Shown: positions 1 through 64,000, numbered from the stretch's first letter. The stretch: 64,000 nucleotides of DNA from Actinomycetota bacterium (GCA_003456155.1 DMPC01000164.1:1378-65377), one strand, 5' to 3'. Notes: generated by a model not told the origin, from the sequence alone. Program-made: numbers and translations.

Positions 1-786
1 GCCCTCGAGCACGCTCAGCAGGCTGCTGACGAGATCGCCCGCCGCACCGGACAGCCGACCCACGACATCGCCGTTGTCCTGGGATCCGGATGGGCCCCCG
101 CAGCGGACCTCCTCGGCTCCACCATCGCCGAGATCCCGATCGCGGAGATTCCGCACTTCTCGGCGCCCGTGGTGGACGGTCATGGCGGACGACTCCGCAG
201 CGTCGACGCGGACGGGGTGAAGGTGCTCGTCTTCCTCGGCAGGACTCATCTCTACGAGGAGCGAGGGGTCGACGCCGTCACCCACGGCATGCGCACCGCG
301 GCGGCGGCCGGCTGCCGGGTCGTCGTGCTCACGAACGGCTGCGGCGGGCTCGATCCGAGCTGGACCCCGGGGACTCCGGTCCTGATCCGCGACCACCTGA
401 ACCTCACCGGAACCAGCCCACTTCACGGCGCGCACTTCGTCGACCTGACGGACCTGTACTCCACCCGGCTTCGGGGGATCTGCCGCGAGATCGATCCCTC
501 GCTCCCCGAGGGGGTCTATGCGCAGTTCCGCGGCCCGATGTACGAGACACCTGCGGAGATCGAGATGGTGCGGGCCATCGGCGGGACTCTCGTGGGCATG
601 AGCACCGCCCTCGAGGCGATCGTCGCGCGATCGACGGGAATGGAGATCCTCGGCCTGTCGCTCGTCACCAATCTCGCCGCGGGGATGTCCGGATCGCCGC
701 TGAACCATGAGGAGGTGCTCGCCGCCGGCCACGCAGCGGCAGAGCGGATGGGGGCGATCCTGGCCCAGGTGGTGAGGAGGGCATGA
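1..786 (+). CDS. punA: Purine nucleoside phosphorylase (trimeric PNP/PunA type); 5' end lies outside the window
   Basis: Frame 1 is open from nt 1 (ALEHAQQAADEIARRTGQPTHDIAVVLGSGW...HFSAPVVDGHGG). Track ORF 169..786 is its GTG-internal part. FRGPMYETPAEIEMVR and LVGMSTALEAIVAR are typical PNP motifs. Confidence 0.9.
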   Translation, partial: ALEHAQQAADEIARRTGQPTHDIAVVLGSGWAPAADLLGSTIAEIPIAEIPHFSAPVVDGHGGRLRSVDADGVKVLVFLGRTHLYEERGVDAVTHGMRTAAAAGCRVVVLTNGCGGLDPSWTPGTPVLIRDHLNLTGTSPLHGAHFVDLTDLYSTRLRGICREIDPSLPEGVYAQFRGPMYETPAEIEMVRAIGGTLVGMSTALEAIVARSTGMEILGLSLVTNLAAGMSGSPLNHEEVLAAGHAAAERMGAILAQVVRRA

Positions 787-52482: not shown

Positions 52483-53457
52483 TCAGTCCTTCTCATACGG
52501 CTTGCCCACAGCCGCGGGCGGAGAGATCCGACCGGAGACCGCGGCGAGCAGGACGATGGTGAGCACGTACGGCAGCATGTTCACGAACTGAGGCGGGATC
52601 GCCAGCACCTCGTCGGCCTGGAGCTGGCTGGCGACGCCCTGCGTGAGGCCGAAGAAGATGGCCGCGAACATCGCCCCCAGCGGGTTCCACGCACCGAAGA
52701 TCATGATGGCCAGCGCCGTGAATCCGCGTCCGGCCGTGAAGCCCCGCTCGAAGGTGCCTGCAGCCTCGAGCGCGAGGTAGGCGCCGGCGAGACCGGCAAG
52801 GCCACCGGCGAAGGTCACGTTCACGAAGCGAAGTCGCTGCACCCCGATGCCGGAGGTGTCGGCAGCGCTCGGCTTCTCGCCGACGGACCGGGTCCGCAGA
52901 CCCCAGATGGTCCTGAAGAGCAGTCCCCACAGGACGATCGAGATGATGATCGCCGCATAGGTGAACAGGCCGTTGTTGAACAGGACCGGTCCGACCAGCG
53001 GGATGTCGGCCAGCAGCGGGATGCGCACAGTCGGCGTCACGCCGGGCAGGACGTAGCCCTGCGCATAGAGGAAGCTGGTCAGTCCTGTGGCGAGGATGTT
53101 GATGATCGTGCCGGCAATGATCTGGTCCATCTTCCAGGTCACTGCCCCGACGGCGAGGAAGCCGCCCATGATCATGCCGGTGCCGATTCCGATGAGGGTG
53201 CCGAGGATCAGGTTTCCGGTGATCGCCGCGCCGAAGAATCCCGCGAAGGCGCTCATCAGCATCTGGCCCTCGATGCCGATGTTGATGACTCCCGATCGCT
53301 CGCAGATGATGCCGACCATCGCCGCGAGGATGAGAGGCACGGCGTACCGCAGCGAGAAGGACAGGACGGAGACGGTGCGGATCTCGTCCATGAAGAAGGC
53401 GACGACGATCCCGGCGACGATGACGCCACCAAGGATGTATGCCCAGCGCGCGCTCAC
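52483..53457 (-). CDS. ABC transporter permease (BMP/nucleoside importer, TMD 2)
   Basis: C-terminal 324 aa of track ORF 52483..54690. GTG at codon 412 overlaps the upstream TGA. Begins VSARWAYILGGVIVAGIVVAFF and is polytopic. Confidence 0.8.
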   Translation of the reverse strand: MSARWAYILGGVIVAGIVVAFFMDEIRTVSVLSFSLRYAVPLILAAMVGIICERSGVINIGIEGQMLMSAFAGFFGAAITGNLILGTLIGIGTGMIMGGFLAVGAVTWKMDQIIAGTIINILATGLTSFLYAQGYVLPGVTPTVRIPLLADIPLVGPVLFNNGLFTYAAIIISIVLWGLLFRTIWGLRTRSVGEKPSAADTSGIGVQRLRFVNVTFAGGLAGLAGAYLALEAAGTFERGFTAGRGFTALAIMIFGAWNPLGAMFAAIFFGLTQGVASQLQADEVLAIPPQFVNMLPYVLTIVLLAAVSGRISPPAAVGKPYEKD

Positions 53458-54569
53458 GAGCCCCACCTCGAGGTGACGGTGGTCTGCTTCATGGCACGCC
53501 GGCGGAAGAGCAGGCGGGCCACGATGGGGGCCGCGACGAGGAGCAGCGTGATCGCAAGGATCACGTCCACGACCTCCGGCTCGATGCCGGTTTCGAACTG
53601 GAGGGTGGCCGCACCCGCCCGCAGCGTGCCGACCAGGAGCGCTGCCGGGATGGCCGCGATCGGATTCGCTCGTGCCAGCAGCGCGATCGTGATGCCGTCG
53701 AATCCCAGGCCGGCATTGAAGGCGGGCTCGAACCTGCCAGTCACGCCCAGGGTCTCGATCGCGCCGCCCATGCCGGCAAGGGCGCCGCTCACGGCCATGG
53801 CCAGCACGATGGTGCCCTTGACCGAGATGCCGGCGTAGCGCGCCGCGTTGGGGTTGAGACCGACGGTGTTGAAGCGGAATCCGCTCGTGGTGCGCACGAG
53901 GAACCAGCCGAAGAAGAGCGCGACGATGACGGCGAGGACGAATCCCGAGGGGATGATGCCGAACGAGGGCAGGGCAGCGGACTCGGCGATGGCTGGCGTG
54001 CGCGACAGGGGCTGGTCTGGCTCCTTCAGGGGGCGGCTGGCCAGATAGTCGACCAGGGCGATGGCGATGCTGTTGAGCATGATGGTCGTGATGACCTCGG
54101 AGACGCTCCGGTAGGCGCGCAGGACACCGGCGATGGACGCCCAGGCTGCCCCGCAGAGCATGCCGAAGATGATGGCCACGGGCAGGTGGATGATGGCGGG
54201 GACCGTGAAGGCGTATCCCGCCCAGGCCGCTCCCACGGCACCCACCAGGAGCTGCCCCTGGGCTCCGATGTTGAACAGGCCCGCCCTCAGGCCGACGGTG
54301 ACAGCGAGTCCGGTCAGGATCAGCGGGGTCGACTTCTCCATGACGCGGATGAGGCCCTCGCTCGAGCCCAGCGCGTTGCTGAAGAGCACCCAGTAGGCGT
54401 AGAAGGGGTTGACGCCCTGCAGCCAGATGAGGATGCCGCCGATCGCGAAGGCGAGCAGGACCGAGACGATCGGCAGCAGGATGCCCGGGATCCGATCGAG
54501 GGGTCCGGATCGGCGGGGATCGGGGTCGGTGAACCCCAGATCCGTCCGTGCCGGGTCGGTGGTCGTCAT
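53454..54569 (-). CDS. ABC transporter permease (BMP/nucleoside importer, TMD 1)
   Basis: 371 aa, polytopic. Motif FNIGAQGQLLVGA. Confidence 0.85.
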   Translation of the reverse strand: MTTTDPARTDLGFTDPDPRRSGPLDRIPGILLPIVSVLLAFAIGGILIWLQGVNPFYAYWVLFSNALGSSEGLIRVMEKSTPLILTGLAVTVGLRAGLFNIGAQGQLLVGAVGAAWAGYAFTVPAIIHLPVAIIFGMLCGAAWASIAGVLRAYRSVSEVITTIMLNSIAIALVDYLASRPLKEPDQPLSRTPAIAESAALPSFGIIPSGFVLAVIVALFFGWFLVRTTSGFRFNTVGLNPNAARYAGISVKGTIVLAMAVSGALAGMGGAIETLGVTGRFEPAFNAGLGFDGITIALLARANPIAAIPAALLVGTLRAGAATLQFETGIEPEVVDVILAITLLLVAAPIVARLLFRRRAMKQTTVTSRWGS

Positions 54570-54662
54570 GATCGAAGAATCCTGTCACAGACGAGGCTGT
54601 CGCGGAACGCCAAGGGCAAGAGCAGCGAGGGCCGGTTTCGGAATGCCCCGGGGAACAGGGAA

Positions 54663-54696
54663 CCGGGGGTGACGCGCCGCTGCGCATCACCCCCGG
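54663..54696 (-). other. Intercistronic GC-rich stem-loop between the SBP and permease genes
   Basis: CCGGGGGTGAcGCGC cgct GCGCaTCACCCCCGG read directly (10+4 bp stem with one mismatch). It starts 18 nt downstream of the SBP stop. Confidence 0.55.
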
Positions 54697-54713
54697 TCCC
54701 GTCGTGCGACGTG

Positions 54714-55874
54714 CTAGCCGAGCGTCACGCCCGTCTCGATGGAGCCATCGGCGAGACCCGCGATGACGGCATCGACCTGGGACTTCACGTCATCAGGAAC
54801 AACCGCCTCGGTGTTGTGGTACGGGGCCAGGCCGGTGTTTCCGAGGAAGTTGCCACCGGGGAAGGCGCCGTCCTTGGCCGCGAGGATGAGGTCGGCGGTG
54901 CCCTGCTTGAGCTTCTTCTCCGCCGAGGTCAGCAGGCACTTCTGCGCCTGCGGAACGGTGAAGAACTGATCGGTGTCGACGCCGATGCAGAAGATGGTCT
55001 CGCCTGCACCCGGCGCCTTCGCGATCTCGATGAGCGCCCCGTTGCCGGTGTTGCCACCCGCACCGAAGATGATGTCGGCGCCCTGGGAGAGCTGCTTCTT
55101 GGCCTCGGCCGCACCCCACTCAGGATCGTTGAAGGCGTTGTTCGGCTCGTGGTAGACGATCGTCACGTCCGCCTCAGGGTTCGCGGCCAGCACGCCCGCC
55201 TTGTAGCCCTCACCGAAGAGCTTGACCGGGGGAACCGTGTCGGTGCCCAGGACAGCCCCCAGCTTGTTGGTCTTGGTCATCAGGCCGGCGAGGTAGCCGG
55301 CGGCGTAGCCCGCCTTGTCCTCGGGGAAGACCAGCCCGGTCAGGTTCGGGATCGCCTCACCCTGGAACTGGTCGACACCGACGAAGTTGGTGGTCGGGTT
55401 GGCCTTGGCCGCCTCGATGGAGGCCTCGCCCATGAGGAAGCCGACGGTCACGATGACGTCGTAGGCCTTCGAGGTGAACTGGGCGATGTTGTTCAGGTAG
55501 TCCTTGGGATCGGTCGTCTCGATGAACTTCGCGAAGCCACCGGTGACGTTGGCAGCCTCCTGGGCCCCCTCCCACGCGGACTGGTTGAAGGACTTGTCGT
55601 CGACCTTGCCGGTGTCGGTGACCAGGCCGATGCAGAAGTTCTCCGGCGCGGCGCAGTTGCTGTCGTCGGTCGTGAGGGCCGGGGCCGCGTCGGCCGGAGC
55701 CTCTTCGGCCGGAGCCTCTTCGGCCGGAGCGGCCTCGGTCGACTCGGCCGGAGCTGCCTCGGAGGCGGCGGCGGTGGAGTCAGTGGCGGCCTCGTCCGTG
55801 CTGCTGCTGCAGCTGGCGAGCACCAACGCGGCTGCGATCACTCCGGCAGCCAGGAGCTTGCGATGCATATGCAT
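54714..55874 (-). CDS. BMP-family (PnrA/Med-like) nucleoside-binding ABC lipoprotein
   Basis: 386 aa. Lipobox LVLASC, an AAPAEEAPAEEAPA linker, and the BMP motif VTDTGKVDDKSFNQSAWEG. Confidence 0.85.
   Translation of the reverse strand: MHMHRKLLAAGVIAAALVLASCSSSTDEAATDSTAAASEAAPAESTEAAPAEEAPAEEAPADAAPALTTDDSNCAAPENFCIGLVTDTGKVDDKSFNQSAWEGAQEAANVTGGFAKFIETTDPKDYLNNIAQFTSKAYDVIVTVGFLMGEASIEAAKANPTTNFVGVDQFQGEAIPNLTGLVFPEDKAGYAAGYLAGLMTKTNKLGAVLGTDTVPPVKLFGEGYKAGVLAANPEADVTIVYHEPNNAFNDPEWGAAEAKKQLSQGADIIFGAGGNTGNGALIEIAKAPGAGETIFCIGVDTDQFFTVPQAQKCLLTSAEKKLKQGTADLILAAKDGAFPGGNFLGNTGLAPYHNTEAVVPDDVKSQVDAVIAGLADGSIETGVTLG
55691..55760 (-). repeat. In-frame 15-nt repeat units (cggccggagcctctt) encoding APAEE-type linker
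   Basis: Visible directly. This is the third lipoprotein in the window with the same repeat type just after the lipobox. Confidence 0.7.
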
Positions 55875-55998
55875 CCCCTTCTGATAGGTGAATCTCGTAA
55901 GCGAGAGTTGCCGTCACCCTAACTGAGGAAATCGGCCGCCAGCACCCCGGGCAACAGGAAGAAACCACTTCGTGACCTGCCTCACCCGGTCCCCGGGT

Positions 55999-56781
55999 TC
56001 ACACTCCGCGAAGGGGCCCACTCGTGCGTGCGGACGACGCCCAGCCGCCATCGACAGGGAGTGTGACTCCTGTGATTCCTGAGGCTGCCGGCGACGACAG
56101 GAAGGCCACAGCATCGGCCACCTCGCGGCCCTCGACAGGGCGGCGCAGCGGGGTCACGTCGGCCCACCACTCCACTCCCGTCGACCATGCCTCCGCGAGT
56201 CCCGGCCGACCGATGAGGCCTGGAGCGACGGCATTGATGCGCGATGGTGCCAGTTCTCCGGCAGCAGCCGCGGTGAACGACACCAGGGCAGCCTTGGATG
56301 CCGCGTACGCCGCGTGACCCGGAAAGGGAGCCAGCGCCTCGACGGACGCCACATGGACGACGCTCACCTCCGCGGGGTGATGGGATCGCTGGCAGACCAG
56401 ACGGGTCAGCTCCACGGCAGCAAGCAGGTTGACCTCGAGGATCTGCCTCCACAGGTCCAGGGCACAGGTCGCTCCCCCGTCCTGTCGCTGGTCGGCGGCA
56501 CAGTTGACCAGCAGATCGACCGTGCCCAGTTCCGCCTCTGCCTGGTCGACCAGTCGGGGAGCCGCCGCTGCGGCATCGGCCAGGTCAGCGTGGACGCCCA
56601 CCGCTGCACCTCCCGAGCCCGTGATGAGCGCGACGACCGCGGCCGTGGCCTCCGGGGTGCGTCCGTGAACCGCCACTCGGGCACCGCGGGCCGCGAGGGT
56701 CAGGGCGATCGCGTGACCCACGCCGGAGGTCGCCCCCGTCACGAGTGCGGTCCGGCCGGCGAGGTCAGTGATGTCAGCCAC
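55999..56781 (-). CDS. SDR family oxidoreductase (last gene of the methionine-salvage transcription unit)
   Basis: 260 aa. Motif VTGATSGVGHAIA and catalytic YAASKAAL. Its start overlaps the cupin stop by 8 nt. Confidence 0.8.
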   Translation of the reverse strand: MADITDLAGRTALVTGATSGVGHAIALTLAARGARVAVHGRTPEATAAVVALITGSGGAAVGVHADLADAAAAAPRLVDQAEAELGTVDLLVNCAADQRQDGGATCALDLWRQILEVNLLAAVELTRLVCQRSHHPAEVSVVHVASVEALAPFPGHAAYAASKAALVSFTAAAAGELAPSRINAVAPGLIGRPGLAEAWSTGVEWWADVTPLRRPVEGREVADAVAFLSSPAASGITGVTLPVDGGWASSARTSGPLRGV

Positions 56782-57235
56782 GGATGAGCTCCTGGATGCG
56801 CGCCGATTCTGTCGGCCATGCAGTCAGGTCGGTATCCGGGCCGGCGAGCTCGAAGCCACTGAACGCCGGCGCCAGCGCGCACACCACCAGCGCCCAGTCG
56901 CCCGACGTGCTCGATCCCTGCCATGAGCCCGCGGGCACCAGCGCGTGGAGAACCTCGCCTTCGGCCCGTCCCAGCCGCACCCGCTCCGAACGACCGTCGG
57001 GATGAAGCTGCAGCATGTCGATCGATGCCCCCGCCACATGCACCCAGAGCTCGTCCTCGGCGAGACGGTGCAGGGCGGAGAAGTCCGTCGGCGTCACCAT
57101 CCCGTAGATGGCATTGCCCGAGTCATTGCGCCACAGCAGCCTGATCCAGACTCCCTCGCCCTCCAGCGGCTCCAGGCCGAGGCGCTCGATGACCTCCGCA
57201 GCCGTCAGTGCCGCCCAGTCGCCCGTCACGCTCAC
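56774..57235 (-). CDS. Cupin-superfamily protein, DUF985-like
   Basis: 153 aa. Motifs LEPLEGEGVWIRLLW, FSALHRLAEDELWHV-like and VPAGSWQGS. Start overlaps the mtaD stop (ATGA). Confidence 0.6.
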   Translation of the reverse strand: MSVTGDWAALTAAEVIERLGLEPLEGEGVWIRLLWRNDSGNAIYGMVTPTDFSALHRLAEDELWVHVAGASIDMLQLHPDGRSERVRLGRAEGEVLHALVPAGSWQGSSTSGDWALVVCALAPAFSGFELAGPDTDLTAWPTESARIQELIRG

Positions 57236-58545
57236 GATCCGACCCTCGCCTGCGCAGCAGCCAAGATTGCGTCGACATCGACGCGCATCACCCGGCGATC
57301 GTCCACGACCACCTGCCCGGCCACCAGAACATGCCGCACGTCCGAGCGACCGGCCGCGAACACGACCGCCGTGTAGGGGTCATGCAACGGGGTCAGGTGC
57401 GGGACCCGCGCGTCGATCAGGACGAGGTCCGCCTCCTTGCCGACCTCGACCGATCCGAGGCGATCGCCCAGACCCAGGGACCGGGCCCCCTCCAGGGTCG
57501 CCATCCGTACGACGTCTGCCGCGGATATCGCCGCGGGATCGTCCCGGACGAGCCTGGCCAGATTCGCCGCAAGCCGCATCACCGCGAACATGTCCAGATC
57601 GTTGCTGGACGAGCAGCCATCCGTGCCCAGGCCGACCCTGATGCCATCTGACCGGTAGCCCACGATGTCCGCGGCACCACTGGCCAGCTTCAGATTCGAT
57701 CCCGGGCAGTGCGCGACGCTGGCTCCCGCGGCCGAGATCACCCGCCTGTCGTCCGCATCGAGCCGGACACCGTGAGCCAGCACCGGCTGAAGCGAGAGGA
57801 CGCCGCTCACATCGAGGCAGGCTGTCGGGCGCATCCCCCGGGACTCCAACGTGTCGCGGTTCTCCGACTCGTTCTCCGACGTGTGCGTCGTGATGATGCC
57901 CTCGGTCTCACGAGCAAGCTCGGCGATCTGGGAGAGATTCTCGATGTCGACCGTGAAGGGTGCATGCGGCATGTAGGCGACGGGCACGTATGGTCCCCCG
58001 ATGCGCCGGACGACCTCCGGCCAGGCGCGCGCGATCTCCATCCGCTGCTCCCACGACAGCCCGTCAGGGCCGGGGAAGGAGAAGAACACGGGCCCGATCA
58101 CATGACGCAGACCCGCCGAGACCGCACCGCGATGCGCCGCCTCGGGATGGAAGTACATGTCCAGCGCCGTCGTGGTGCCACCGAGCAGAGCCTCGACAGC
58201 GCCCAGACGAGCACCGAGCTCGACGCCCTCCGGATCCATCACGCGGGCCTCCTCAGCCCACACCAGAGACAAGAATCCCTGCAGGTCGACGTTCTCCGCG
58301 ACTCCGCGCAGGAGGGTCATGGGCAGATGCGTATGGAGGTTCACGAGGCCGGGCAGAATCAGATGCCCTCGGGCGTCGATCACCCGATCAGCCTCGATCG
58401 CGTCCCTCAGCTCCGTCGCCGGACCCATCGCCACGATGCGGCCGTCGGCGATCGCCACAGACGTATCCGGGAGCGCCGTGGCCTGCTCGTCGCACACCAG
58501 CACGAAACGCGCGGAATCGAGCAGCAGGTCAGCCCGCATCGGCAA
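57232..58545 (-). CDS. mtaD: 5-methylthioadenosine/S-adenosylhomocysteine deaminase-like amidohydrolase
   Basis: 437 aa. Motifs LPGLVNLHTHLPMTLLRG, HTSENESE, HCPGSNLKLASG and GTDGCSSSNDLDMF. Confidence 0.8.
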   Translation of the reverse strand: MPMRADLLLDSARFVLVCDEQATALPDTSVAIADGRIVAMGPATELRDAIEADRVIDARGHLILPGLVNLHTHLPMTLLRGVAENVDLQGFLSLVWAEEARVMDPEGVELGARLGAVEALLGGTTTALDMYFHPEAAHRGAVSAGLRHVIGPVFFSFPGPDGLSWEQRMEIARAWPEVVRRIGGPYVPVAYMPHAPFTVDIENLSQIAELARETEGIITTHTSENESENRDTLESRGMRPTACLDVSGVLSLQPVLAHGVRLDADDRRVISAAGASVAHCPGSNLKLASGAADIVGYRSDGIRVGLGTDGCSSSNDLDMFAVMRLAANLARLVRDDPAAISAADVVRMATLEGARSLGLGDRLGSVEVGKEADLVLIDARVPHLTPLHDPYTAVVFAAGRSDVRHVLVAGQVVVDDRRVMRVDVDAILAAAQARVGS

Positions 58546-59269
58546 GCCTCCGCGCTGCCTCCACGAGGATCCTGCTCACCGTCTCCGCTCCGTCGGCGAC
58601 GACGGCCATCACGTCCTCGATCGTGATCTCCGGCCCCAGCCCCGCCGCCGGATTCGCCACGAGGCAGATCGACGCGTAGGGCAGTCCGCGCTCCTTGGCG
58701 AGGACCACCTCCGGCACGCCCGTCATGCCGACCACGGTCGCTCCCATCGCCTGCGCCATGCGGATCTCCGCCCGCGTCTCGAAGCGCGGTCCCTCGAATG
58801 CGGCGTAGATGCCGGTGTCCTCGACCGCGATCCCGAGGGCGTCGGCAGCCTGGAGCAGGACTGCCCTCAGACGCCTGTCGTAGGGCTCGGTCATGTCGAC
58901 ATGGACGACGCCCTCCGGAGTCGAGCCGTCGAAGAAGGTGGACGGACGTGACTTCGTGAAGTCGAGGAAGTCGTCGACCACCGCGATGGCACCCGAGTCG
59001 AGGCCGATGCCACCGACGACGTTGACGGCGATGACCTCCGTGACCCCGAGCATGCGCAGGGCGTCGATGTTGGCCCGGTAGTTGACCAGGTGGGGCGGAA
59101 CGGAGTGGTCAGCGCCGTGGCGGGTGAGGAAGACGACCCGTCGACCGTGCATCCCTCCCACGACCGCCCGCGCCAGCCCGTACGACGTGTCGACGTCGAT
59201 CTGCTCGGGATCGTCCAGGGAGTCCAACGAGTAGAAGCCGGTACCGGCGATCACGCCGAGGGCGCTCAC
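58529..59269 (-). CDS. MTAP-family nucleoside phosphorylase (candidate S-methyl-5'-thioinosine / MTA phosphorylase)
   Basis: Track ORF 58529..59494. GTG at codon 76 overlaps the cdd TGA. Motifs VIAGTGFYSL, FLTRHG, NYRANIDALRMLGV, EGPRFETRAEI and VVGMTGVPE. Confidence 0.8.
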   Translation of the reverse strand: MSALGVIAGTGFYSLDSLDDPEQIDVDTSYGLARAVVGGMHGRRVVFLTRHGADHSVPPHLVNYRANIDALRMLGVTEVIAVNVVGGIGLDSGAIAVVDDFLDFTKSRPSTFFDGSTPEGVVHVDMTEPYDRRLRAVLLQAADALGIAVEDTGIYAAFEGPRFETRAEIRMAQAMGATVVGMTGVPEVVLAKERGLPYASICLVANPAAGLGPEITIEDVMAVVADGAETVSRILVEAARRLADAG

Positions 59270-59676
59270 GGGAGCTGATCCGGGCCGAAGCCGTCGGGGA
59301 GGAGAAAGGACAGCGGCACGGGGCCGCCCTCGCGGTCGACCAGCAGATCGCCGCCACCGTGCTCGAAGAGAAGCTGACGGCAGCGACCGCAGGGCAGCAG
59401 TGCACCGGGGTTGGGGCCGACGCAGGCGAAGGCGACCAGCCGCCCGCGGTCTCCCGGGCGTCCCGTGCGGACGAGATCCCCGAGCATCGAGCACTCAGCA
59501 CACAGCGTCACCCCGATGGAGGCGTTCTCGACATTGCTGCCGGTCACGATCCGGCCGTCATCCGTCAGGGCCGCAGCGCCCACCGGGTGGTTCGAATAGG
59601 GCGCATAGGCGAGAGTGCGGGCGCTGCGGGCTGCCTGCCGGAGCTGCTCCCACATGCCCTCGTCGATCTCATGCAT
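59266..59676 (-). CDS. cdd: Cytidine deaminase
   Basis: 136 aa. Zinc ligand motifs CAECSMLG and PCGRCRQLL. Confidence 0.9.
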   Translation of the reverse strand: MHEIDEGMWEQLRQAARSARTLAYAPYSNHPVGAAALTDDGRIVTGSNVENASIGVTLCAECSMLGDLVRTGRPGDRGRLVAFACVGPNPGALLPCGRCRQLLFEHGGGDLLVDREGGPVPLSFLLPDGFGPDQLP

Positions 59677-60259
59677 TACTGGGAGCCTGGGTCAACTCGT
59701 CGAAGGTCGGGAATCGAGAGGCGATGTCGCTTCCCGTGAAGGAGCCGACCCAGCCGTCATCGCTGCGGAAGAAGCGGATCGCCGTGAAGTCGGGCAGCGT
59801 CCCCATGTCGAACCAGTGCGTGGTGAGGGCGGGAACACTGAGCAGGTCGCCCTTGGTGCACAGCATCGCGAGCACACGCTCCCCGATGTGCAGGTAGAAC
59901 ACTCCGCTGCCGTGGGCGAAGAAGCGGATCTCCTCCTCATCATGGGTGTGCTCGTTCAGGAAACGGGCACGTGCGGCGGTCGCCGTCTCCAGCAGCTCCT
60001 CGGGGCTCTCCGGCGTCAGGTGGAGCTGGGCGACATCGACGAGTGTGTAGCCCTGTGATGCGCAGAGACGCTCGATCAGCGCGGCATACGAGTCGAGAAC
60101 CTGCTCCTGGCTGCTCGACGCATCGACATCGTCACGCACCTCGAGTCGGTCGAAGGTGATGCCCACGGCAGCCAGCTCGTCGCCGATGCGGAGGGGATCA
60201 GAGGTGCGCAGCACCGGCTCGGTCGGCTCTGTTTCGGACCAGATGGTGAGCATCGTCAT
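59669..60259 (-). CDS. mtnD: Acireductone dioxygenase (ARD cupin)
   Basis: Track ORF 59669..60469. Start at Met71 (MTMLTIWSE). Metal motif EHTHDEEEIRFF and a later WFDMG. Stop overlaps the cdd start by 8 nt. Confidence 0.8.
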   Translation of the reverse strand: MTMLTIWSETEPTEPVLRTSDPLRIGDELAAVGITFDRLEVRDDVDASSSQEQVLDSYAALIERLCASQGYTLVDVAQLHLTPESPEELLETATAARARFLNEHTHDEEEIRFFAHGSGVFYLHIGERVLAMLCTKGDLLSVPALTTHWFDMGTLPDFTAIRFFRSDDGWVGSFTGSDIASRFPTFDELTQAPSNA

Positions 60260-60290
60260 GACGGGAACCTCCGGGGTGTCGTGGAGATCA

Positions 60291-60914
60291 TTATGGACGG
60301 CGCCCCGGGGGCGCGACGAGATCGAGAAGCAGCGCGTGCTGCAGCAGCCAGTCGGCGCTCTCGGTGCGATTCGCCGCATCGTCCAGCGAGGCGCCCCAGA
60401 CATACATGCCGTGGTCGGCGACCAGCACCACGGGCACGGCGGGGTTGAGAGCCCTCCGGATGCGCTCACTGAGGACAGCCATGTCCTGGCTGTTCTCCAC
60501 CACAGGAACGGTGTAGACGTCCCCTTCCGCCGAGCAGCCGAGCCCCTTCATCTGCTCGACCCCGGTGAGTGCCACGCCGCTCGGCCAACGGGCCGCTGCG
60601 AGCACCGACGACATCGCATGCACGTGGACCACGGACCTCGCCCCCGAGACGTCGACGATGGCCGCATGGACGGGCGCCTCCGCGCTGGGGGCGTGGCTCT
60701 GGCCCTCCAGGGCTTGTCCCATCGCATCCGTGATCACCGCATGCTCAGGCTGGGTCGCGTGCTTGGCGATGCCGCTGGCGCTGACCAGCAGGTGGCGAGG
60801 GTCCTCCTGGGCGACCACGGAGACATTGCCGGAGGTTCCGCGCATCCAGCCGAGGTCGTACAGGTGCCGGGTGGTGGCGGCCAGCCGCACCGCGCGTCCA
60901 TGCTCGAGGGACAT
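60291..60914 (-). CDS. mtnB: Methylthioribulose-1-phosphate dehydratase (class II aldolase/adducin fold)
   Basis: 207 aa. Motifs WMRGTSGNVSV and VVHVHA. Confidence 0.75.
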   Translation of the reverse strand: MSLEHGRAVRLAATTRHLYDLGWMRGTSGNVSVVAQEDPRHLLVSASGIAKHATQPEHAVITDAMGQALEGQSHAPSAEAPVHAAIVDVSGARSVVHVHAMSSVLAAARWPSGVALTGVEQMKGLGCSAEGDVYTVPVVENSQDMAVLSERIRRALNPAVPVVLVADHGMYVWGASLDDAANRTESADWLLQHALLLDLVAPPGRRP

Positions 60915-60988
60915 GCCCGGACACTAGCGCCCGTGCCACGGGGCTAGCGTTCGATCCTCGGGGGGAACGACAGCACGAGGAGGGAGCC

Positions 60989-61723
60989 ATGGAGCCGATC
61001 ACCTGCGACGCGATCGTCGTCGATATCGAGGGGACGACGAGTGCAGCGAGCCACGTCTACGACGTCCTGTTCCCCTACGCCCGCAGACGCCTGCGCGAGT
61101 GGATCGCCTCCCACCCCGATGACCCGGCAACTGCGGATGCGGTGGCGCGGGTCGCCGAGCAGATCAACGCCTCCCCAGAGGACATCGACGCGATCGTCGC
61201 CGAGCTTCAGCGCTGGATAGACCAGGACATCAAGGCTGAGCCGCTCAAGGCACTACAGGGCCTCATCTGGTCGGACGGCTACGCCCGTGGGGATCTCACC
61301 TCCCATGTCTTCGACGATGTGCCTGCCTCCCTCGCCGCTTGGGCCGACCAGGGCCTGCTGCTGGCCGTCTACTCGTCGGGCTCGGTTGCCGCTCAGCGGG
61401 CCCTCTTCGCGAATGCCCCCGGAGGTGACCTCAACCCGCTGTTCTCGGCGAACTTCGACCTGTCGACTGCGGGCCCCAAGAAGGAGCCCGATTCCTACCG
61501 CCGCATCTCCTCGGCGCTCGGCATCCCTGCGGATCGACTGCTGTTCCTCTCCGACATCCAGGCGGAGATCGACGCAGCACGCACTGCCGGCTGGCAGGCC
61601 GTGGGGGTGCTGCGCGCCGGGGAGGCACAGGCGACGGTCACGGGCGCACCACGACTCTCGCGATTCGACGAGCTGGCCGTCGTCAGAGCGGGACGCGACG
61701 ACTCTCGGGCTGGCCGTACGTGA
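60989..61723 (+). CDS. mtnC: Enolase-phosphatase E1 (HAD superfamily)
   Basis: 244 aa. HAD motif I IVVDIEGTT, plus KALQGLIWSDGYARGDL and YSSGSV. Confidence 0.8.
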   Translation: MEPITCDAIVVDIEGTTSAASHVYDVLFPYARRRLREWIASHPDDPATADAVARVAEQINASPEDIDAIVAELQRWIDQDIKAEPLKALQGLIWSDGYARGDLTSHVFDDVPASLAAWADQGLLLAVYSSGSVAAQRALFANAPGGDLNPLFSANFDLSTAGPKKEPDSYRRISSALGIPADRLLFLSDIQAEIDAARTAGWQAVGVLRAGEAQATVTGAPRLSRFDELAVVRAGRDDSRAGRT

Positions 61724-62330
61724 GGAAGCTGTCCCGAGCGATGTCCATCTGCTCGTCGGTGAGCAGGACGGGCGAGCCCGCCGCACGAGCGATCAGGTAC
61801 TGACGGCACAGCACCTCGACCTCCAGCGCCAGGGACACGGCCTTCTGCAGATCCGGGCCGAGGGCCAGCATCCCGTGGTTGGCCATCAGGCAGGCGCGAC
61901 GGTCGCCGAGAGCGGCCTTGACGGCATCGGAGAGCTCTTGGGTGCCGTAGGGGGCGTAGGCGGAGCAGACGATCTCGCGCCCTCCCGCCTTGGCCACCTG
62001 GTAGTGGAAAGGGGGAAGGTTCTCCCGCAGGGACGCCAGCGCGGTGGCATAGGTCGAGTGCGTGTGCACGATGGCGCCGGCATCAGGCCGGGCCAGGTAG
62101 ATGTCGCGATGAATCCGCCACTCGCTCGTCGGCACGCCGTCCGAACGACAGGCACCATCGAGGCCGAGCAGGACCATCCGTTCCGGTGAGAGCTCCGACG
62201 GCGGTATGGCGGACGGCGTCACAAGCAGGCCATCGTCGACGCGGATGGAGAGATTGCCGGACGTGCCCGCGTTCAGGCCCCGCTCGTCGAGCCAGCGCAG
62301 GGCGTCGTTCAGCGCCTCGGCGGCGGTCAT
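61683..62330 (-). CDS. Class II aldolase (FucA-like); candidate 5-methylthioribulose-1-phosphate aldolase
   Basis: Track ORF 61683..62390. Met21 start overlaps the mtnA stop (ATGA). Motifs GTSGNLSIR, EWRIHRDIY, AIVHTHSTYATA and MANHGMLALG. Confidence 0.7.
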   Translation of the reverse strand: MTAAEALNDALRWLDERGLNAGTSGNLSIRVDDGLLVTPSAIPPSELSPERMVLLGLDGACRSDGVPTSEWRIHRDIYLARPDAGAIVHTHSTYATALASLRENLPPFHYQVAKAGGREIVCSAYAPYGTQELSDAVKAALGDRRACLMANHGMLALGPDLQKAVSLALEVEVLCRQYLIARAAGSPVLLTDEQMDIARDSFLTYGQPESRRVPL

Positions 62331-63358
62331 GGTCTCTCCGCCACGAGGGCATCGACATGCTTCACACCGTCCGGCTCGACGACGCAACACTCGGTCACGA
62401 GGGCATCGATGAGACGCGATGGGGTCACGTCGAAGGCCGGATTGAATCCCCGCGCACCCGGGGGCGCCGTGGCCACACCGGCGAGGGACGTGACCTCGGC
62501 ACCGTCGCGGAGCTCGATGTGGATGTCATCGCCCGACGGCGTCGACAGGTCGACCGTCGAGGAGGGGGCGGCCACCACGAAGGGGATTCCGGCATCAGCG
62601 CAGGCCAGGGCCACGCCGAGCGAGCCGATCTTGTTCGCCGTGTCGCCGTTGCGCGCGATGCGGTCGGCTCCAATGATGGCGACGTCGACGAGACCGCGAA
62701 GGATGGTGCTTGCGGCCGCTCCGTCGACCTGGACGACGTAGTCGATCCCGTCCTCCTGCAGCTCCCAGGCCGTGAGCCGCGAGCCCTGCAGCAGCGGCCT
62801 GGTCTCGTCCGCGTAGACGATCTCGAGGGCATCCCGGGCATGCAGCTCACGCACGATCCCGAGGGCAGTGCCCCAGGCGGTCGTCGCCAGGAAGCCGGTG
62901 TTGCAGTGGGTCAGGACGCGCACGCGACCCCTCCCGGTGCGCGCCAGGATCCAGTCGGCGCCGAGCCGGGACAGCTCACGGTTGGCCGCCTCGTCCTCAC
63001 GCATGATGGCGTCGGCCTCCGCGAGGACGGCCTCGACGCCCCGGTGGATGAGCGGGGATACCCGATCGGCGCCCCAGGCGAGGTTGACGGCCGTGGGTCG
63101 CGCATCACGGATCCGACGCACCTCACCCGCCAGCCGCCCCGGTGCCCATCCCTCGCGGGCACCCTGGAGCATGGCCACGGCGACCCCGAACCCACCGACA
63201 GCGCCGAGTGCGGGAGCGCCGCGGACGACCAGCCGCTGGACGGCATCGACGACCTCGTCGACCGAGCGGCACCTCGCGTAGACCAGCTCCCCCGGGAGCC
63301 GGGTCTGGTCGATCAGCACCAGGCTGCCGTCCTGCACATCCCACTCGACCGCACGCAT
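62327..63358 (-). CDS. mtnA: S-methyl-5-thioribose-1-phosphate isomerase (eIF-2B-like family)
   Basis: Track ORF 62327..63622. Start at Met89 (MRAVEWDVQDGSLVLIDQTRLP). Motifs RGAPALG, HCNTGFLAT, ETRPLLQGSRLTAWEL and GADRIARNGDTANKIG. Confidence 0.85.
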   Translation of the reverse strand: MRAVEWDVQDGSLVLIDQTRLPGELVYARCRSVDEVVDAVQRLVVRGAPALGAVGGFGVAVAMLQGAREGWAPGRLAGEVRRIRDARPTAVNLAWGADRVSPLIHRGVEAVLAEADAIMREDEAANRELSRLGADWILARTGRGRVRVLTHCNTGFLATTAWGTALGIVRELHARDALEIVYADETRPLLQGSRLTAWELQEDGIDYVVQVDGAAASTILRGLVDVAIIGADRIARNGDTANKIGSLGVALACADAGIPFVVAAPSSTVDLSTPSGDDIHIELRDGAEVTSLAGVATAPPGARGFNPAFDVTPSRLIDALVTECCVVEPDGVKHVDALVAERP

Positions 63359-63514
63359 GCCCCTCAGGCTAGTCCGCTCCCCCACCGCCTGTGACCCACG
63401 ACATAGGACGTCCACATATATCCGGCCGCGCCGCCCCTCCCGAACCTCGCTAGTCTGGGCGCAACCCCGGGCACCAGAAGCCAGGACCCGGCGAGCGAGA
63501 CCAGAGGAGGTCGC

Positions 63515-63910
63515 GTGGCCACGCTTTCGGTCGGCACGCTGTATCGCGGCGGCGAGGGGATGTGGACCTGGGTCCTCCACCGCATCACCGGCGTCTCGGT
63601 CTTCTTCTTCCTGCTCGTCCACGTCATGGACACGGCGCTCGTGCGGGTCTCTCCTGAGGCCTACGACCTTGTGATCGCGACCTACAAGACGCCGATCGTG
63701 AACCTGCTCGAGGTCGGACTAGTGGGGGCAGTGCTCTACCACGCGTTCAACGGTCTGCGCATCGTGCTCATCGACTTCTGGTCCAAGGGCCCGCGCTACC
63801 AGCGGCAGATGACCTGGGTGATCGCGGCCATCTGGCTCGCCCTCATGGTCCCCGGCACCTTCTTCATGATGAAGCACACCGTCGAGGCCATGTTCGGGAG
63901 CACCGTATGA
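63515..63910 (+). CDS. sdhC: Succinate dehydrogenase cytochrome b subunit
   Basis: 131 aa. GTG preceded by AGAGGAGG. Heme-His context HRITGVSVFFFLLVHV. Three TM segments. Confidence 0.85.
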   Translation: MATLSVGTLYRGGEGMWTWVLHRITGVSVFFFLLVHVMDTALVRVSPEAYDLVIATYKTPIVNLLEVGLVGAVLYHAFNGLRIVLIDFWSKGPRYQRQMTWVIAAIWLALMVPGTFFMMKHTVEAMFGSTV

Positions 63911-64000
63911 GCACCACAGCCCAGCCTGGTCCCGTCAGCATCCCCGCTCCCCGGTCGAGCCAGCGCACCCGGCAGCGCAGCAACTTCGAGCTCTACTCGT
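63907..64000 (+). CDS. sdhD: Succinate dehydrogenase membrane anchor subunit, 3'-truncated by window edge
   Basis: ATG overlaps the sdhC TGA (ATGA). Translation MSTTAQPGPVSIPAPRSSQRTRQRSNFELYS is open to the window end. The call rests mainly on its position after sdhC. Confidence 0.55.
   Translation, partial: MSTTAQPGPVSIPAPRSSQRTRQRSNFELYS

Follow-up and report, generated by a model that had tools for sequence, protein, structure and literature searches.

Directly downstream of mtnA, the window (the whole 64-kb stretch of DNA analysed here) encodes a metal-dependent, FucA-like class II aldolase. With a probability of roughly three in four, we assume that this enzyme cleaves 5-deoxyribulose-1-phosphate and probably also 5-methylthioribulose-1-phosphate (DHAP shunt, EC 4.1.2.62), within a locus in which a shared trunk leads into two branches. 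Support for the DHAP-shunt reading comes from gene context and not from phylogeny. The genes concerned are the following, with positions counted from the first letter of the window.

62327-63358, minus strand: mtnA, 5-methylthioribose-1-P/5-deoxyribose-1-P isomerase, 343 aa (TIGR00512 salvage_mtnA, 382.6 bits, cutoff 279; PF01008)
61683-62330, minus strand: FucA-like class II aldolase, 215 aa (PF00596, 181.5 bits), putatively of Ald2/DrdA-type function
60989-61723, plus strand: mtnC, enolase-phosphatase (acireductone synthase), 244 aa (TIGR01691, 222.1 bits, cutoff 128.1)
60291-60914, minus strand: mtnB, methylthioribulose-1-P dehydratase, 207 aa (TIGR03328, 152.3 bits, cutoff 137.05)
59669-60259, minus strand: mtnD, acireductone dioxygenase, 196 aa, ATG at 60257-60259 (PF03079 ARD, 84.5 bits)
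59266-59676, minus strand: cytidine-deaminase-like gene (cdd), 136 aa (PF00383/PF08211)
58529-59269, minus strand: 5'-methylthioinosine/5'-deoxyinosine-type nucleoside phosphorylase, 246 aa (passes NF006599)
57232-58545, minus strand: TRZ/ATZ-family amidohydrolase, putative MTA/5'-deoxyadenosine deaminase, 437 aa (best PDB matches 4DZH, 4F0R, 4GBD)
56774-57235, minus strand: Cupin_5 (DUF985) protein, 153 aa (PF06172, 81.9 bits)
55999-56781, minus strand: SDR oxidoreductase, 260 aa (PF13561/PF00106; under all NCBIfam cutoffs), last gene of its operon

The aldolase and its neighbouring genes

As judged from its sequence, the product of the gene at 61683-62330 can be assigned to the FucA-like subfamily of the class II aldolase/adducin superfamily. 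A Pfam profile search gives 181.5 bits for PF00596 (gathering score 22.2), and the motifs GTSGNLSIR, AIVHTHS and MANHGML, by which the preliminary description had recognised the protein, are all present. The closest solved structure is E. coli FucA (1FUA; E=1e-50, residues 10-206), and the full-length identity of 44% fixes the fold. B. thuringiensis DrdA (6BTD) matches with E=4.5e-35 and 124.8 bits, compared with 175.9 bits for FucA. In the NCBIfam profile search the aldolase stays under every cutoff, be it of the FucA, epimerase, MtnB or decarboxylase models. It was correctly regarded earlier as distinct from mtnB, since the MtnB model TIGR03328 is passed by the mtnB product but not by the aldolase (65.8 bits).

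The alignment shows that the aldolase keeps all catalytic residues of FucA (E. coli FucA numbering throughout), namely the GT(S/A)GN phosphate loop, Ser72, Glu73, His92, His94, His155, Tyr113, Phe206 and Tyr209, and that the columns G25, T26, G28, N29, E73, H92, H94 and H155 are invariant. We take His92, His94 and His155 to be the metal ligands, Glu73 to be the catalytic residue and GT(A/S)GN to be the phosphate loop. The role of the catalytic Glu is taken from PMC6079011. Both the Tyr113 segment (FHYQV) and the C-terminal tail with Phe206 and Tyr209 (SFLTYG) are found in the aldolase, whereas in MtnB of the window the Tyr113 segment falls into an alignment gap and the C-terminal tail is missing. 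SEWR[IF]HRD and PPFHY are clade-specific motifs of the aldolase, the counterparts in FucA being SEWRFHMA and PAIHY. Among the conserved residues, Phe206 and Tyr209 form the lining of the lactaldehyde pocket in FucA; to our knowledge, no pocket rule for substrate preference has been established.

The junction of mtnA and the aldolase gene reads ...GCG GAG AGA CCA TGA with ATG ACC..., which is the ATGA overlap of stop and start described before, 4 nt long, and a GGAG lies 8 nt 5' of the aldolase ATG. mtnA heads this two-gene operon, in which translation of both genes is coupled. Its product does not pass the ribose-1,5-bisphosphate isomerase model (127.4 bits, cutoff 314.1), and no second mtnA homologue is present in the 64-kb window. 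The stop codons of the aldolase gene (61683-61685) and of mtnC (61721-61723) agree with the 41 bp that the convergent 3' ends had been said to share. The shared part covers the tail of mtnC beyond the conserved domain, as the TIGR01691 match stops at residue 228 of 244. At this junction, the relatives L002, L087 and L090 have gaps of 6 to 76 bp and L007 overlaps less, and the 41-bp overlap is specific to the window lineage.

Seven closely packed genes form an operon that starts with mtnB. Start and length of mtnD agree with L002 and L090, where the orthologues also have 196 aa. mtnB, mtnC and mtnD are each recognised by their models, and the full MtnBCD set is indeed encoded beside the mtnA-aldolase pair, as the preliminary description had it. 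The cdd gene lies between mtnD and the phosphorylase gene and is 88% identical in L002, L003 and L007; its stop overlaps the verified GTG start of the phosphorylase gene (GTGA), which is 2.4 kb away from the aldolase gene. The phosphorylase passes only the S-methyl-5'-thioinosine phosphorylase model NF006599 (254.2 bits, cutoff 223) and not the MTAP model TIGR01694 (262.6 bits, cutoff 274.85), and its best PDB match is 3OZB. The deaminase gene overlaps the 3' end of the phosphorylase gene by 17 bp. Its product matches best 4DZH and 4F0R (5-methylthioadenosine/S-adenosylhomocysteine deaminase, E=2.5e-81), followed by 4GBD, and stays under all NCBIfam cutoffs, including that of 5'-deoxyadenosine deaminase (305 bits, cutoff 522). 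4GBD and 3OZB are presumably both P. aeruginosa enzymes. Translationally coupled to the deaminase gene (GTGA) is the Cupin_5 gene, the PDB relatives of which are only the uncharacterised 1ZNP and 1YUD. A PnrA/Bmp-type binding protein and ABC permeases are encoded 3' of the window-type locus.

Comparison of the aldolase with FucA and Ald2

In the source databases the gene at 61683-62330 is labelled L-fuculose-phosphate aldolase. This label is uninformative, since PGAP gives the identical name to the validated Ald2 of E. coli, the sequence of which (locus L005) was recovered via the published deletion primer. The window aldolase shares 44% identity with E. coli FucA and 37% with E. coli Ald2, and the latter two are 58% identical to each other and pair with 100% bootstrap in a neighbor-joining (NJ) tree (92 sequences, 100 bootstraps; R. 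rubrum, R. palustris and B. thuringiensis aldolases not among them). Therefore, the phylogenetic test proposed in the preliminary description is not discriminating, because the validated Ald2 itself groups with FucA. The split of these two E. coli proteins from the mtnA-linked set has a bootstrap of 2% and the actinobacterial clade one of 38%, and due to this poor support the tree was not used for assigning the aldolase. The median identity to 64 non-actinobacterial mtnA-linked aldolases amounts to 48.9% for the window protein, compared with 45.5% for E. coli FucA. FucA and Ald2 are not separable by sequence alone, and it is the gene context, not the sequence similarity, that separates Ald2-type from FucA-type aldolases. 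E. coli Ald2 was also rejected as a sequence anchor, as it belongs to a FucA-proximal lineage and shares only 37% identity with the window protein. This low identity, together with the 58% between Ald2 and FucA, suggests that the window aldolase and E. coli Ald2 were recruited independently of each other within the FucA-like subfamily.

Gene context in related loci

To the aldolase we compared 88 loci from Actinobacteria and Proteobacteria (1.39 Mb in total) that encode relatives with 47-86% identity, including the 80 best matches of a scan of 185,579 species genomes. The preliminary description had set beforehand the absence of the mtnA-aldolase adjacency in relatives as an argument against its own reading; mtnA directly adjoins the aldolase gene, on either side, in 72 of the 88 loci (64 of the 80 best scan matches). 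The adjacency is far beyond chance and recurs across two phyla. Usually, the stop and start codons overlap, for example by 4 bp in L001, L087, L088 and L090, by 1 bp in L002 and by 11 bp in L004 and L089. Among the 16 loci where mtnA is not adjacent, three are truncated contigs and one has an FGGY kinase beside the aldolase. A homologue of mtnP is found within 2.5 kb in 11 further loci, six of which (L026, L043, L046, L059, L064, L070) show the order mtnP-mtnA-aldolase.

Moreover, some Actinobacteria contain a four-gene operon without mtnBCD, consisting of the genes for the aldolase, MtnA, an MTI-type phosphorylase and an MTA/5'-deoxyadenosine-type deaminase, which are separated by short gaps or overlap. 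It occurs in two orders, mtnA-aldolase-phosphorylase-deaminase (L001, L088), where the phosphorylase gene directly adjoins that of the aldolase, and phosphorylase-deaminase-aldolase-mtnA (L089), where the two belong to one operon. In the window type (L002, L003, L007, L087, L090), mtnC, mtnB, mtnD and cdd stand exactly between the aldolase and phosphorylase genes. The stand-alone operon and the adjacency in relatives together support the earlier proposal that the mtnA-aldolase pair marks a DHAP-shunt branch beside MtnBCD.

An SDR gene at 55999-56781 had also been noticed correctly, and its product was suggested to reduce the aldehyde formed by the aldolase. The context gives no support for such a role, since none of the loci with the aldolase but no mtnBCD contains the SDR gene; together with the Cupin_5 gene, which is found only in loci also carrying mtnBCD, it travels with the mtnBCD block and not with the aldolase. 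With regard to regulation, no Rfam match at E<=1 that would indicate a riboswitch or other RNA control was obtained in 55500-64000, and near both operons neither sigma-70-like promoters nor terminators exceeded the shuffled expectation. An imperfect palindrome of 24 nt (60924-60947), in the intergenic region of the divergent mtnB and mtnC, occurs once in the window; it was rejected as an operator, as 8 of 100 shuffles match too and none of the 91 fetched loci contains it.

Proposed two-branch pathway

In the trunk of the proposed pathway, the TRZ/ATZ-family deaminase would turn MTA or 5'-deoxyadenosine into the inosine analogues, the MTI-type phosphorylase would then free hypoxanthine and the 1-phosphosugar, and MtnA would isomerise the latter to the ketose-1-phosphate. 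Entry is thus probably through deaminase and MTI-type phosphorylase rather than through a plain MtnP, which the preliminary description had missed. From the ketose-1-phosphate the flux may be split: in one branch MtnB, MtnC and the O2-dependent MtnD would rebuild the methionine keto-acid from the methylthio sugar, and in the other branch the aldolase would yield DHAP and acetaldehyde or 2-(methylthio)acetaldehyde, with the carbon going to glycolysis. Since the first branch cannot recycle 5'-deoxyadenosine, disposal of this radical-SAM by-product is the most economical role for the aldolase. A dedicated aldolase is not strictly required for that, because MtnB-type enzymes such as DEP1 of A. thaliana can cleave 5-deoxyribulose-1-P (PMC6079011). 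The oxygen-based split of the branches put forward in the preliminary description is chemically true, as MtnD requires O2 and the aldolase does not, and hypothetical as a physiological division of labour; the DHAP shunt also runs aerobically, as known from R. palustris (PMC5893883) and E. coli (PMC10986504).

We see even chances that this actinobacterial lineage holds a third variant of entry into the bacterial DHAP shunt, that is, a conserved deaminase-phosphorylase-MtnA-aldolase operon that releases hypoxanthine instead of adenine, into which the window sub-lineage has mtnC, mtnB, mtnD and cdd placed between the aldolase and phosphorylase genes, with one isomerase and one phosphorylase for both branches and with a nucleoside ABC importer that may feed the locus. 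No description of a deaminase-first variant was found in the literature searched. If this entry is true, the locus would represent, besides a third variant, a clean case of one pathway inserted into the operon of another. The DHAP shunt itself, its wide distribution, its co-occurrence with universal methionine salvage and drdA inside salvage clusters are already published, and the window locus does not overturn the current understanding. It rather offers a defensible functional name for a gene that, in this MAG as in many relatives from freshwater and soil, is labelled L-fuculose-phosphate aldolase, and for uncultured Actinobacteria it implies a dedicated disposal of 5'-deoxyadenosine with carbon recovery as well as a sulfur-conserving methionine salvage, both from shared enzymes.

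Alternative functions of the aldolase

The protein might be a genuine aldolase of L-fuculose-1-phosphate or of another 6-deoxyhexulose-phosphate in sugar catabolism, next to mtnA without functional meaning. The best matches among curated models and PDB entries are indeed FucA (NF005984, 190.9 bits; 1FUA), the database name says the same and the lactaldehyde-pocket residues Phe206 and Tyr209 are conserved. However, all cutoffs of the canonical FucA models are missed (NF005984, cutoff 264; TIGR01086, 173 bits, cutoff 400.25; NF005302, 166.9 bits, cutoff 264), and the name carries no weight, being also that of the validated Ald2. Furthermore, the window contains none of fucI, fucK, fucP, fucU and fucO, and fucI, fucP and fucU are absent from the 88 related loci as well, where only one FGGY kinase (L030) and one distant FucO-like protein (L070) were matched. 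Together with the overlapping mtnA and aldolase codons across phyla, this makes a fuculose-phosphate aldolase unlikely. Quite unlikely, too, is a ribulose-1-phosphate aldolase that burns the ribose of nucleosides, which would be taken up by the adjacent nucleoside ABC transporter and converted by the phosphorylase to ribose-1-P, by MtnA to ribulose-1-P and by the aldolase to DHAP and glycolaldehyde. A haloarchaeal ribulose-1-phosphate aldolase is part of the non-carboxylating pentose bisphosphate pathway (PMC9700705), and its model NF053831 is the second-best NCBIfam match of the window protein (179.1 bits), although under the cutoff of 300; the cytidine deaminase and the downstream PnrA/Bmp-type transporter of the window-type locus would also fit. 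Yet the isomerase is of the MtnA type and not of the ribose-1,5-bisphosphate isomerase type, phosphorylase and deaminase match MTA/MTI-specific groups, and neither cdd nor the transporter is found in the four-gene operons of L001, L088 and L089 or in Proteobacteria.

There is only a very small chance that the enzyme works in the synthetic direction, joining DHAP and an aldehyde to a deoxy-sugar phosphate. The product might be a bioactive deoxysugar or a precursor like 6-deoxy-5-ketofructose-1-P, which has been proposed for M. jannaschii. DHAP aldolases of class II act reversibly and are promiscuous, DrdA takes diverse aldehydes (PMC6079011), and the diversion of 5-deoxyribose derivatives is known from archaea and cyanobacteria (PMC6079011, PMC8102628), but no locus has linked downstream biosynthetic genes and the simplest operon holds the degradative trio or quartet only. 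It is just as improbable that the protein is not an aldolase but a second MtnB-like dehydratase, a 4-epimerase or a decarboxylase, all of which are activities found in the same superfamily. The matches to the epimerase (121.5 bits), OtnC decarboxylase (114.6 bits) and MtnB models are weak, far under the cutoffs and under the FucA-type scores, and Glu73, Tyr113 and the C-terminal Tyr209 tail are kept, which the neighbouring true MtnB lacks.

Comparison with known systems

The trio of mtnP or mtnK, mtnA and an aldolase gene is the experimentally established DHAP shunt (PMC5893883, PMC10986504, PMC6079011). The window locus resembles the shunt of R. rubrum and R. palustris (MtnP-MtnA-Ald2) in its entry by a phosphorylase, followed by MtnA and a class II aldolase that forms DHAP and an aldehyde, and in being operonic; for R. 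rubrum the three shunt genes are reported in a single operon (PMC5893883), and the gene order of that shunt recurs in several proteobacterial relatives of the window aldolase. The likeness, also to Rru_A0359, is one of gene context. Unlike in R. rubrum and R. palustris, a deaminase precedes the MTI-type phosphorylase, the locus also carries mtnB, mtnC and mtnD, which use the same single mtnA, and no genes of the RLP/isoprenoid shunt were seen in the window. The shunt of E. coli ExPEC (Pfs, MtnK-MtnA-Ald2), validated experimentally for growth on 5'-deoxynucleosides (PMC10986504), likewise has mtnA adjoining a FucA-like aldolase gene (locus L005), but it uses a nucleosidase and a kinase for entry, lacks MtnBCD and has an aldolase that is 37% identical. 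E. coli FucA (1FUA) has the same fold and the same catalytic residues as the window aldolase, which in contrast has no fuc operon context, scores under the FucA cutoffs and carries its own clade motifs.

Entry by a deaminase followed by a phosphorylase, with release of hypoxanthine, is shared with the MTA deaminase and MTI phosphorylase of P. aeruginosa and with DadD and MTIP of M. jannaschii (PMC6302742). These systems, however, feed the universal methionine pathway or the archaeal synthesis of aromatic amino-acid precursors and have no operon-encoded DHAP-shunt aldolase. In Corallococcus coralloides, drdA lies inside a methionine-salvage cluster (Beaudoin et al. 2018, Supplementary Fig. 12; PMC6079011), which was taken to mean that the salvage kinase and isomerase serve two purposes (PMC6079011). 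This likeness is taken from the description of the cluster; the organism belongs to a different phylum, and no deaminase-first entry is reported for it. B. thuringiensis DrdK-DrdI-DrdA (6BTD) performs the same chemistry, with the aldolase branch handling 5-deoxyribose (PMC6079011, PMC10986504), and this organism carries the shunt in addition to universal methionine salvage (PMC10986504). Bacillus has separate paralogous kinase and isomerase genes at separate loci for this, whereas in the window one isomerase and one phosphorylase would serve both branches.

The mtnA-Aldolase Pair and the Adjacent Salvage Operon

Features of the locus (coordinates, strand where assigned, description; window G+C 65%)
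63515-63910 (+): sdhC (PF01127), first gene of a succinate dehydrogenase operon, divergent from mtnA
62327-63358 (-): mtnA, 343 aa, MtnA equivalog model 382.6 bits (cutoff 279)
61683-62330 (-): aldolase, 215 aa, PF00596 class II aldolase, full-length
60989-61723: mtnC, convergent with the aldolase
60291-60914: mtnB, MtnB model 152.3 (cutoff 137.05)
59669-60259: mtnD, 31-bp gap after mtnB
59266-59676 (-): cytidine-deaminase-like gene (cdd; PF00383/PF08211), 8-bp overlap with mtnD
58529-59269: phosphorylase, GTGA overlap with cdd
57232-58545: amidohydrolase (deaminase), 17-bp overlap with the phosphorylase
56774-57235 (-): Cupin_5/DUF985 gene, GTGA overlap with the amidohydrolase
55999-56781 (-): SDR, 8-bp overlap with the Cupin_5/DUF985 gene
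52483-55874 (-): PnrA/Bmp-type nucleoside ABC transporter, three genes (substrate-binding lipoprotein, two BPD_transp_2 permeases)

The 3' end of mtnA reads ...GAG AGA CCA TGA, with the three bases of TGA common to the aldolase ATG in a 4-nt ATGA overlap that is preceded by GGAG. This coupling had been pointed out in the preliminary description, all sequence statements of which are confirmed: the FucA-like motifs GTSGNLSIR, AIVHTHS, and MANHGML are present in the aldolase, its stop codon lies within the convergent mtnC, 41 bp from the 3' end of that gene, and it is distinct from the mtnB paralogue, as the MtnB model gives it a score of only 65.8. The same aldolase protein is recorded for a metagenome-assembled “Actinobacteria bacterium,” and close relatives are labeled Nanopelagicales or Actinomycetales.

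The seven genes from mtnB onward follow each other with overlaps or tiny gaps throughout. The cytidine-deaminase-like gene has mtnD on one side and the phosphorylase on the other, its stop and start codons overlapping with theirs, and is kept at 88% identity across the loci of window-type layout (L002, L003, L007, L087, L090). The importer directly downstream of the operon, which is kept in L002, L087, and L090, may take up nucleosides or 5'-deoxynucleosides. The sdh-mtnA neighborhood is common to L002, L003, L087, and L090, with or without genes between, and the far end of the window (310-780, +) carries a second PNP-family phosphorylase homolog, 33% identical to that of the locus. The 74-bp divergent mtnB/mtnC intergenic region contains an imperfect 24-nt palindrome, CTAGCGCCCGTGCCACGGGGCTAG (60924-60947, +), which is probably not a conserved operator, since no copy was found in any related locus; a search of the locus for a regulatory RNA, a promoter or a conserved operator detected none.

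Predicted Activities of the Encoded Enzymes

The best solved match of the aldolase is E. coli FucA (1FUA; E=1e-50, 44% identity), followed by S. pneumoniae FucA and B. thuringiensis DrdA (6BTD, 124.8 bits). It misses all curated NCBIfam models, scoring 190.9 and 173 on the FucA models (cutoffs 264 and 400) and 179 on that of the haloarchaeal ribulose-1-phosphate aldolase (cutoff 300), and far lower than these on the epimerase, OtnC, and MtnB models. Aligned with E. coli FucA, it retains the GT(S/A)GN phosphate loop, Ser72, Glu73, His92, His94, His155, and Tyr113 as well as the C-terminal Phe206/Tyr209 tail, whereas the MtnB of the window lacks both the Tyr113 segment and the tail. By these residues, the protein is predicted to be a competent metal-dependent DHAP aldolase and not a dehydratase or epimerase.

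The phosphorylase passes only the 5'-methylthioinosine (MTI) phosphorylase model (254.2, cutoff 223) and misses the MTAP model (262.6, cutoff 274.85). Its closest solved relative is 3OZB, which we take to be the MTI phosphorylase of P. aeruginosa. The amidohydrolase, a TRZ/ATZ-family protein, scores under every curated cutoff; its top matches are 4DZH, 4F0R, which was deposited as a 5-methylthioadenosine/S-adenosylhomocysteine deaminase, and 4GBD, presumably the methylthioadenosine (MTA) deaminase of P. aeruginosa. Based on the phosphorylase model and these structural matches, the trunk of the pathway probably runs from the deaminase via an MTI-type phosphorylase to MtnA. An entry by deamination followed by phosphorolysis has been described before (PMC6302742).

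The preliminary description had proposed the mtnA-aldolase pair as a branch of the DHAP shunt and a phylogeny against Ald2 and FucA as a way to refute it. The validated shunt aldolase of E. coli was recovered from E. coli genomes through a search with the published deletion primer; the ald2 3' primer sequence occurs in 1233 of 5426 complete genomes. In RefSeq/PGAP, this Ald2 (L005 4511-5152; strain 4/1-1, NZ_CP023844.1) goes by the name “L-fuculose-phosphate aldolase”; it shares 58% identity with E. coli FucA, but only 37% with the window protein. In a neighbor-joining tree, the only tree built, of 92 sequences, those of R. rubrum, R. palustris, and B. thuringiensis not among them, the two E. 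coli proteins pair at 100% bootstrap, but their split from the mtnA-linked aldolases is supported by 2% and the actinobacterial clade by 38%. Against the 64 non-actinobacterial mtnA-linked aldolases, the window protein reaches a median identity of 48.9% and E. coli FucA one of 45.5%. FucA and Ald2 thus cannot be distinguished from sequence. Evidently, the Ald2 function was recruited repeatedly within a single FucA-like subfamily, and therefore the proposed phylogeny does not discriminate. For assigning the function of the aldolase, gene context is decisive.

Gene Context across Related Loci

An alignment of the aldolase clade, run against one genome for each of 185,579 species, found at least 588 relatives. 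The top 80 were retained and joined by eight contigs fetched for metagenomic relatives. These 88 loci, thus selected by similarity to the aldolase clade, were examined by tblastn; the queries were the proteins of the window together with MtnK, MtnA, Ald2, and Fuc proteins of E. coli. The adjacency of mtnA and aldolase recurs in relatives: mtnA directly adjoins the aldolase, upstream or downstream, in 72 of the 88 loci (64 of the 80 best scan matches). An mtnP homolog also lies within 2.5 kb in 11 further loci; the order mtnP-mtnA-aldolase is seen in six of these (L026, L043, L046, L059, L064, L070). Throughout the 88 loci, fucI, fucP, and fucU are absent.

No adjacent mtnA was found in 16 loci, three of which are truncated contigs. 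A proteobacterial subgroup of this kind (L068, L076, L079, L081, L071, L073, L056, L066), which includes Methylobacterium, Methylorubrum, Dyella, Azospirillum, and Asaia, stands together in the tree; L066 has mtnA-mtnP 1.3 kb off. This resembles R. palustris, where ald2 is reportedly apart from mtnP-mtnA (PMC5893883). In a Rhodospirillaceae MAG (L030 9959-11882), the aldolase relative has no mtnA alongside and is followed by an FGGY-family sugar kinase, which suggests a role in another sugar pathway for part of the subfamily.

Among Actinobacteria, L001 (70% identity) and L088 (65%) have the operon order mtnA-ald-phosphorylase-deaminase, the genes overlapping or separated by short gaps, and contain none of mtnB, mtnC, and mtnD, L089 (60%) has the order phosphorylase-deaminase-ald-mtnA, and L004 (57%) the mtnA-ald pair by itself. 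The layout of the window is repeated in five loci (67-72% identity). When the layouts are compared, mtnC, mtnB, mtnD, and cdd fill exactly the ald-phosphorylase interval, and Cupin_5 and SDR are added after the deaminase. Within the 88 loci, mtnB, mtnC, and mtnD lie near the aldolase only in these window-type actinobacterial loci.

It had also been proposed that the SDR could reduce the aldehyde product. The SDR and Cupin_5 genes share the operon from mtnB to the deaminase, to which they are translationally coupled, but both are missing in every aldolase locus without mtnBCD and in all proteobacterial loci. The context therefore ties them to the mtnBCD block, or simply to the lineage, rather than to what the aldolase makes. 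The restriction of the pair to loci with mtnBCD hints at an accessory step not yet recognized, which would belong to methionine salvage and not to the aldolase branch. The solved relatives of Cupin_5, 1ZNP and 1YUD, are both uncharacterized.

Proposed Pathway and Comparison with Known Systems

MTA and 5'-deoxyadenosine would be deaminated and then phosphorolysed, and MtnA would isomerize the products to ketose-1-phosphates. MtnB, MtnC, and MtnD would convert 5-methylthioribulose-1-phosphate to the methionine keto-acid, with O2 required at MtnD, whereas the aldolase would cleave 5-deoxyribulose-1-phosphate to DHAP and acetaldehyde, and probably the methylthio analog to DHAP and 2-(methylthio)acetaldehyde. 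How the two branches divide the work we infer: disposal of 5'-deoxyadenosine is considered the main role of the aldolase, because succinate dehydrogenase is encoded on the other side of mtnA, the relatives of the organism are freshwater or soil aerobes, and in R. palustris and E. coli the shunt operates under aerobic conditions (PMC5893883, PMC10986504). An anoxic back-up of methionine salvage is considered less likely. B. thuringiensis also has both pathways and uses the shunt for 5'-deoxyadenosine disposal (PMC6079011, PMC10986504).

R. rubrum, R. palustris, E. coli ExPEC, and B. thuringiensis are already established examples of the DHAP shunt and its aldolase. In R. rubrum, mtnP, mtnA, and the aldolase gene reportedly form one operon, and homologs of the three shunt enzymes are estimated for ~6.5% of KEGG bacteria (PMC5893883). 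Beaudoin et al. described methionine-salvage clusters without their own isomerase, with drdA sitting with one, as well as drdA within a Corallococcus salvage cluster, and proposed a dual use of the salvage kinase and isomerase (PMC6079011). In the literature searched, no description was found of a conserved four-gene operon in bacteria in which a deaminase and an MTI-type phosphorylase provide the entry. The combined operon is thus the possibly new element, both halves of which are known separately: the deaminase and MTI phosphorylase entry is known from P. aeruginosa for methionine salvage, and a deaminase and phosphorylase entry from M. jannaschii for 5'-deoxyadenosine (PMC6302742).
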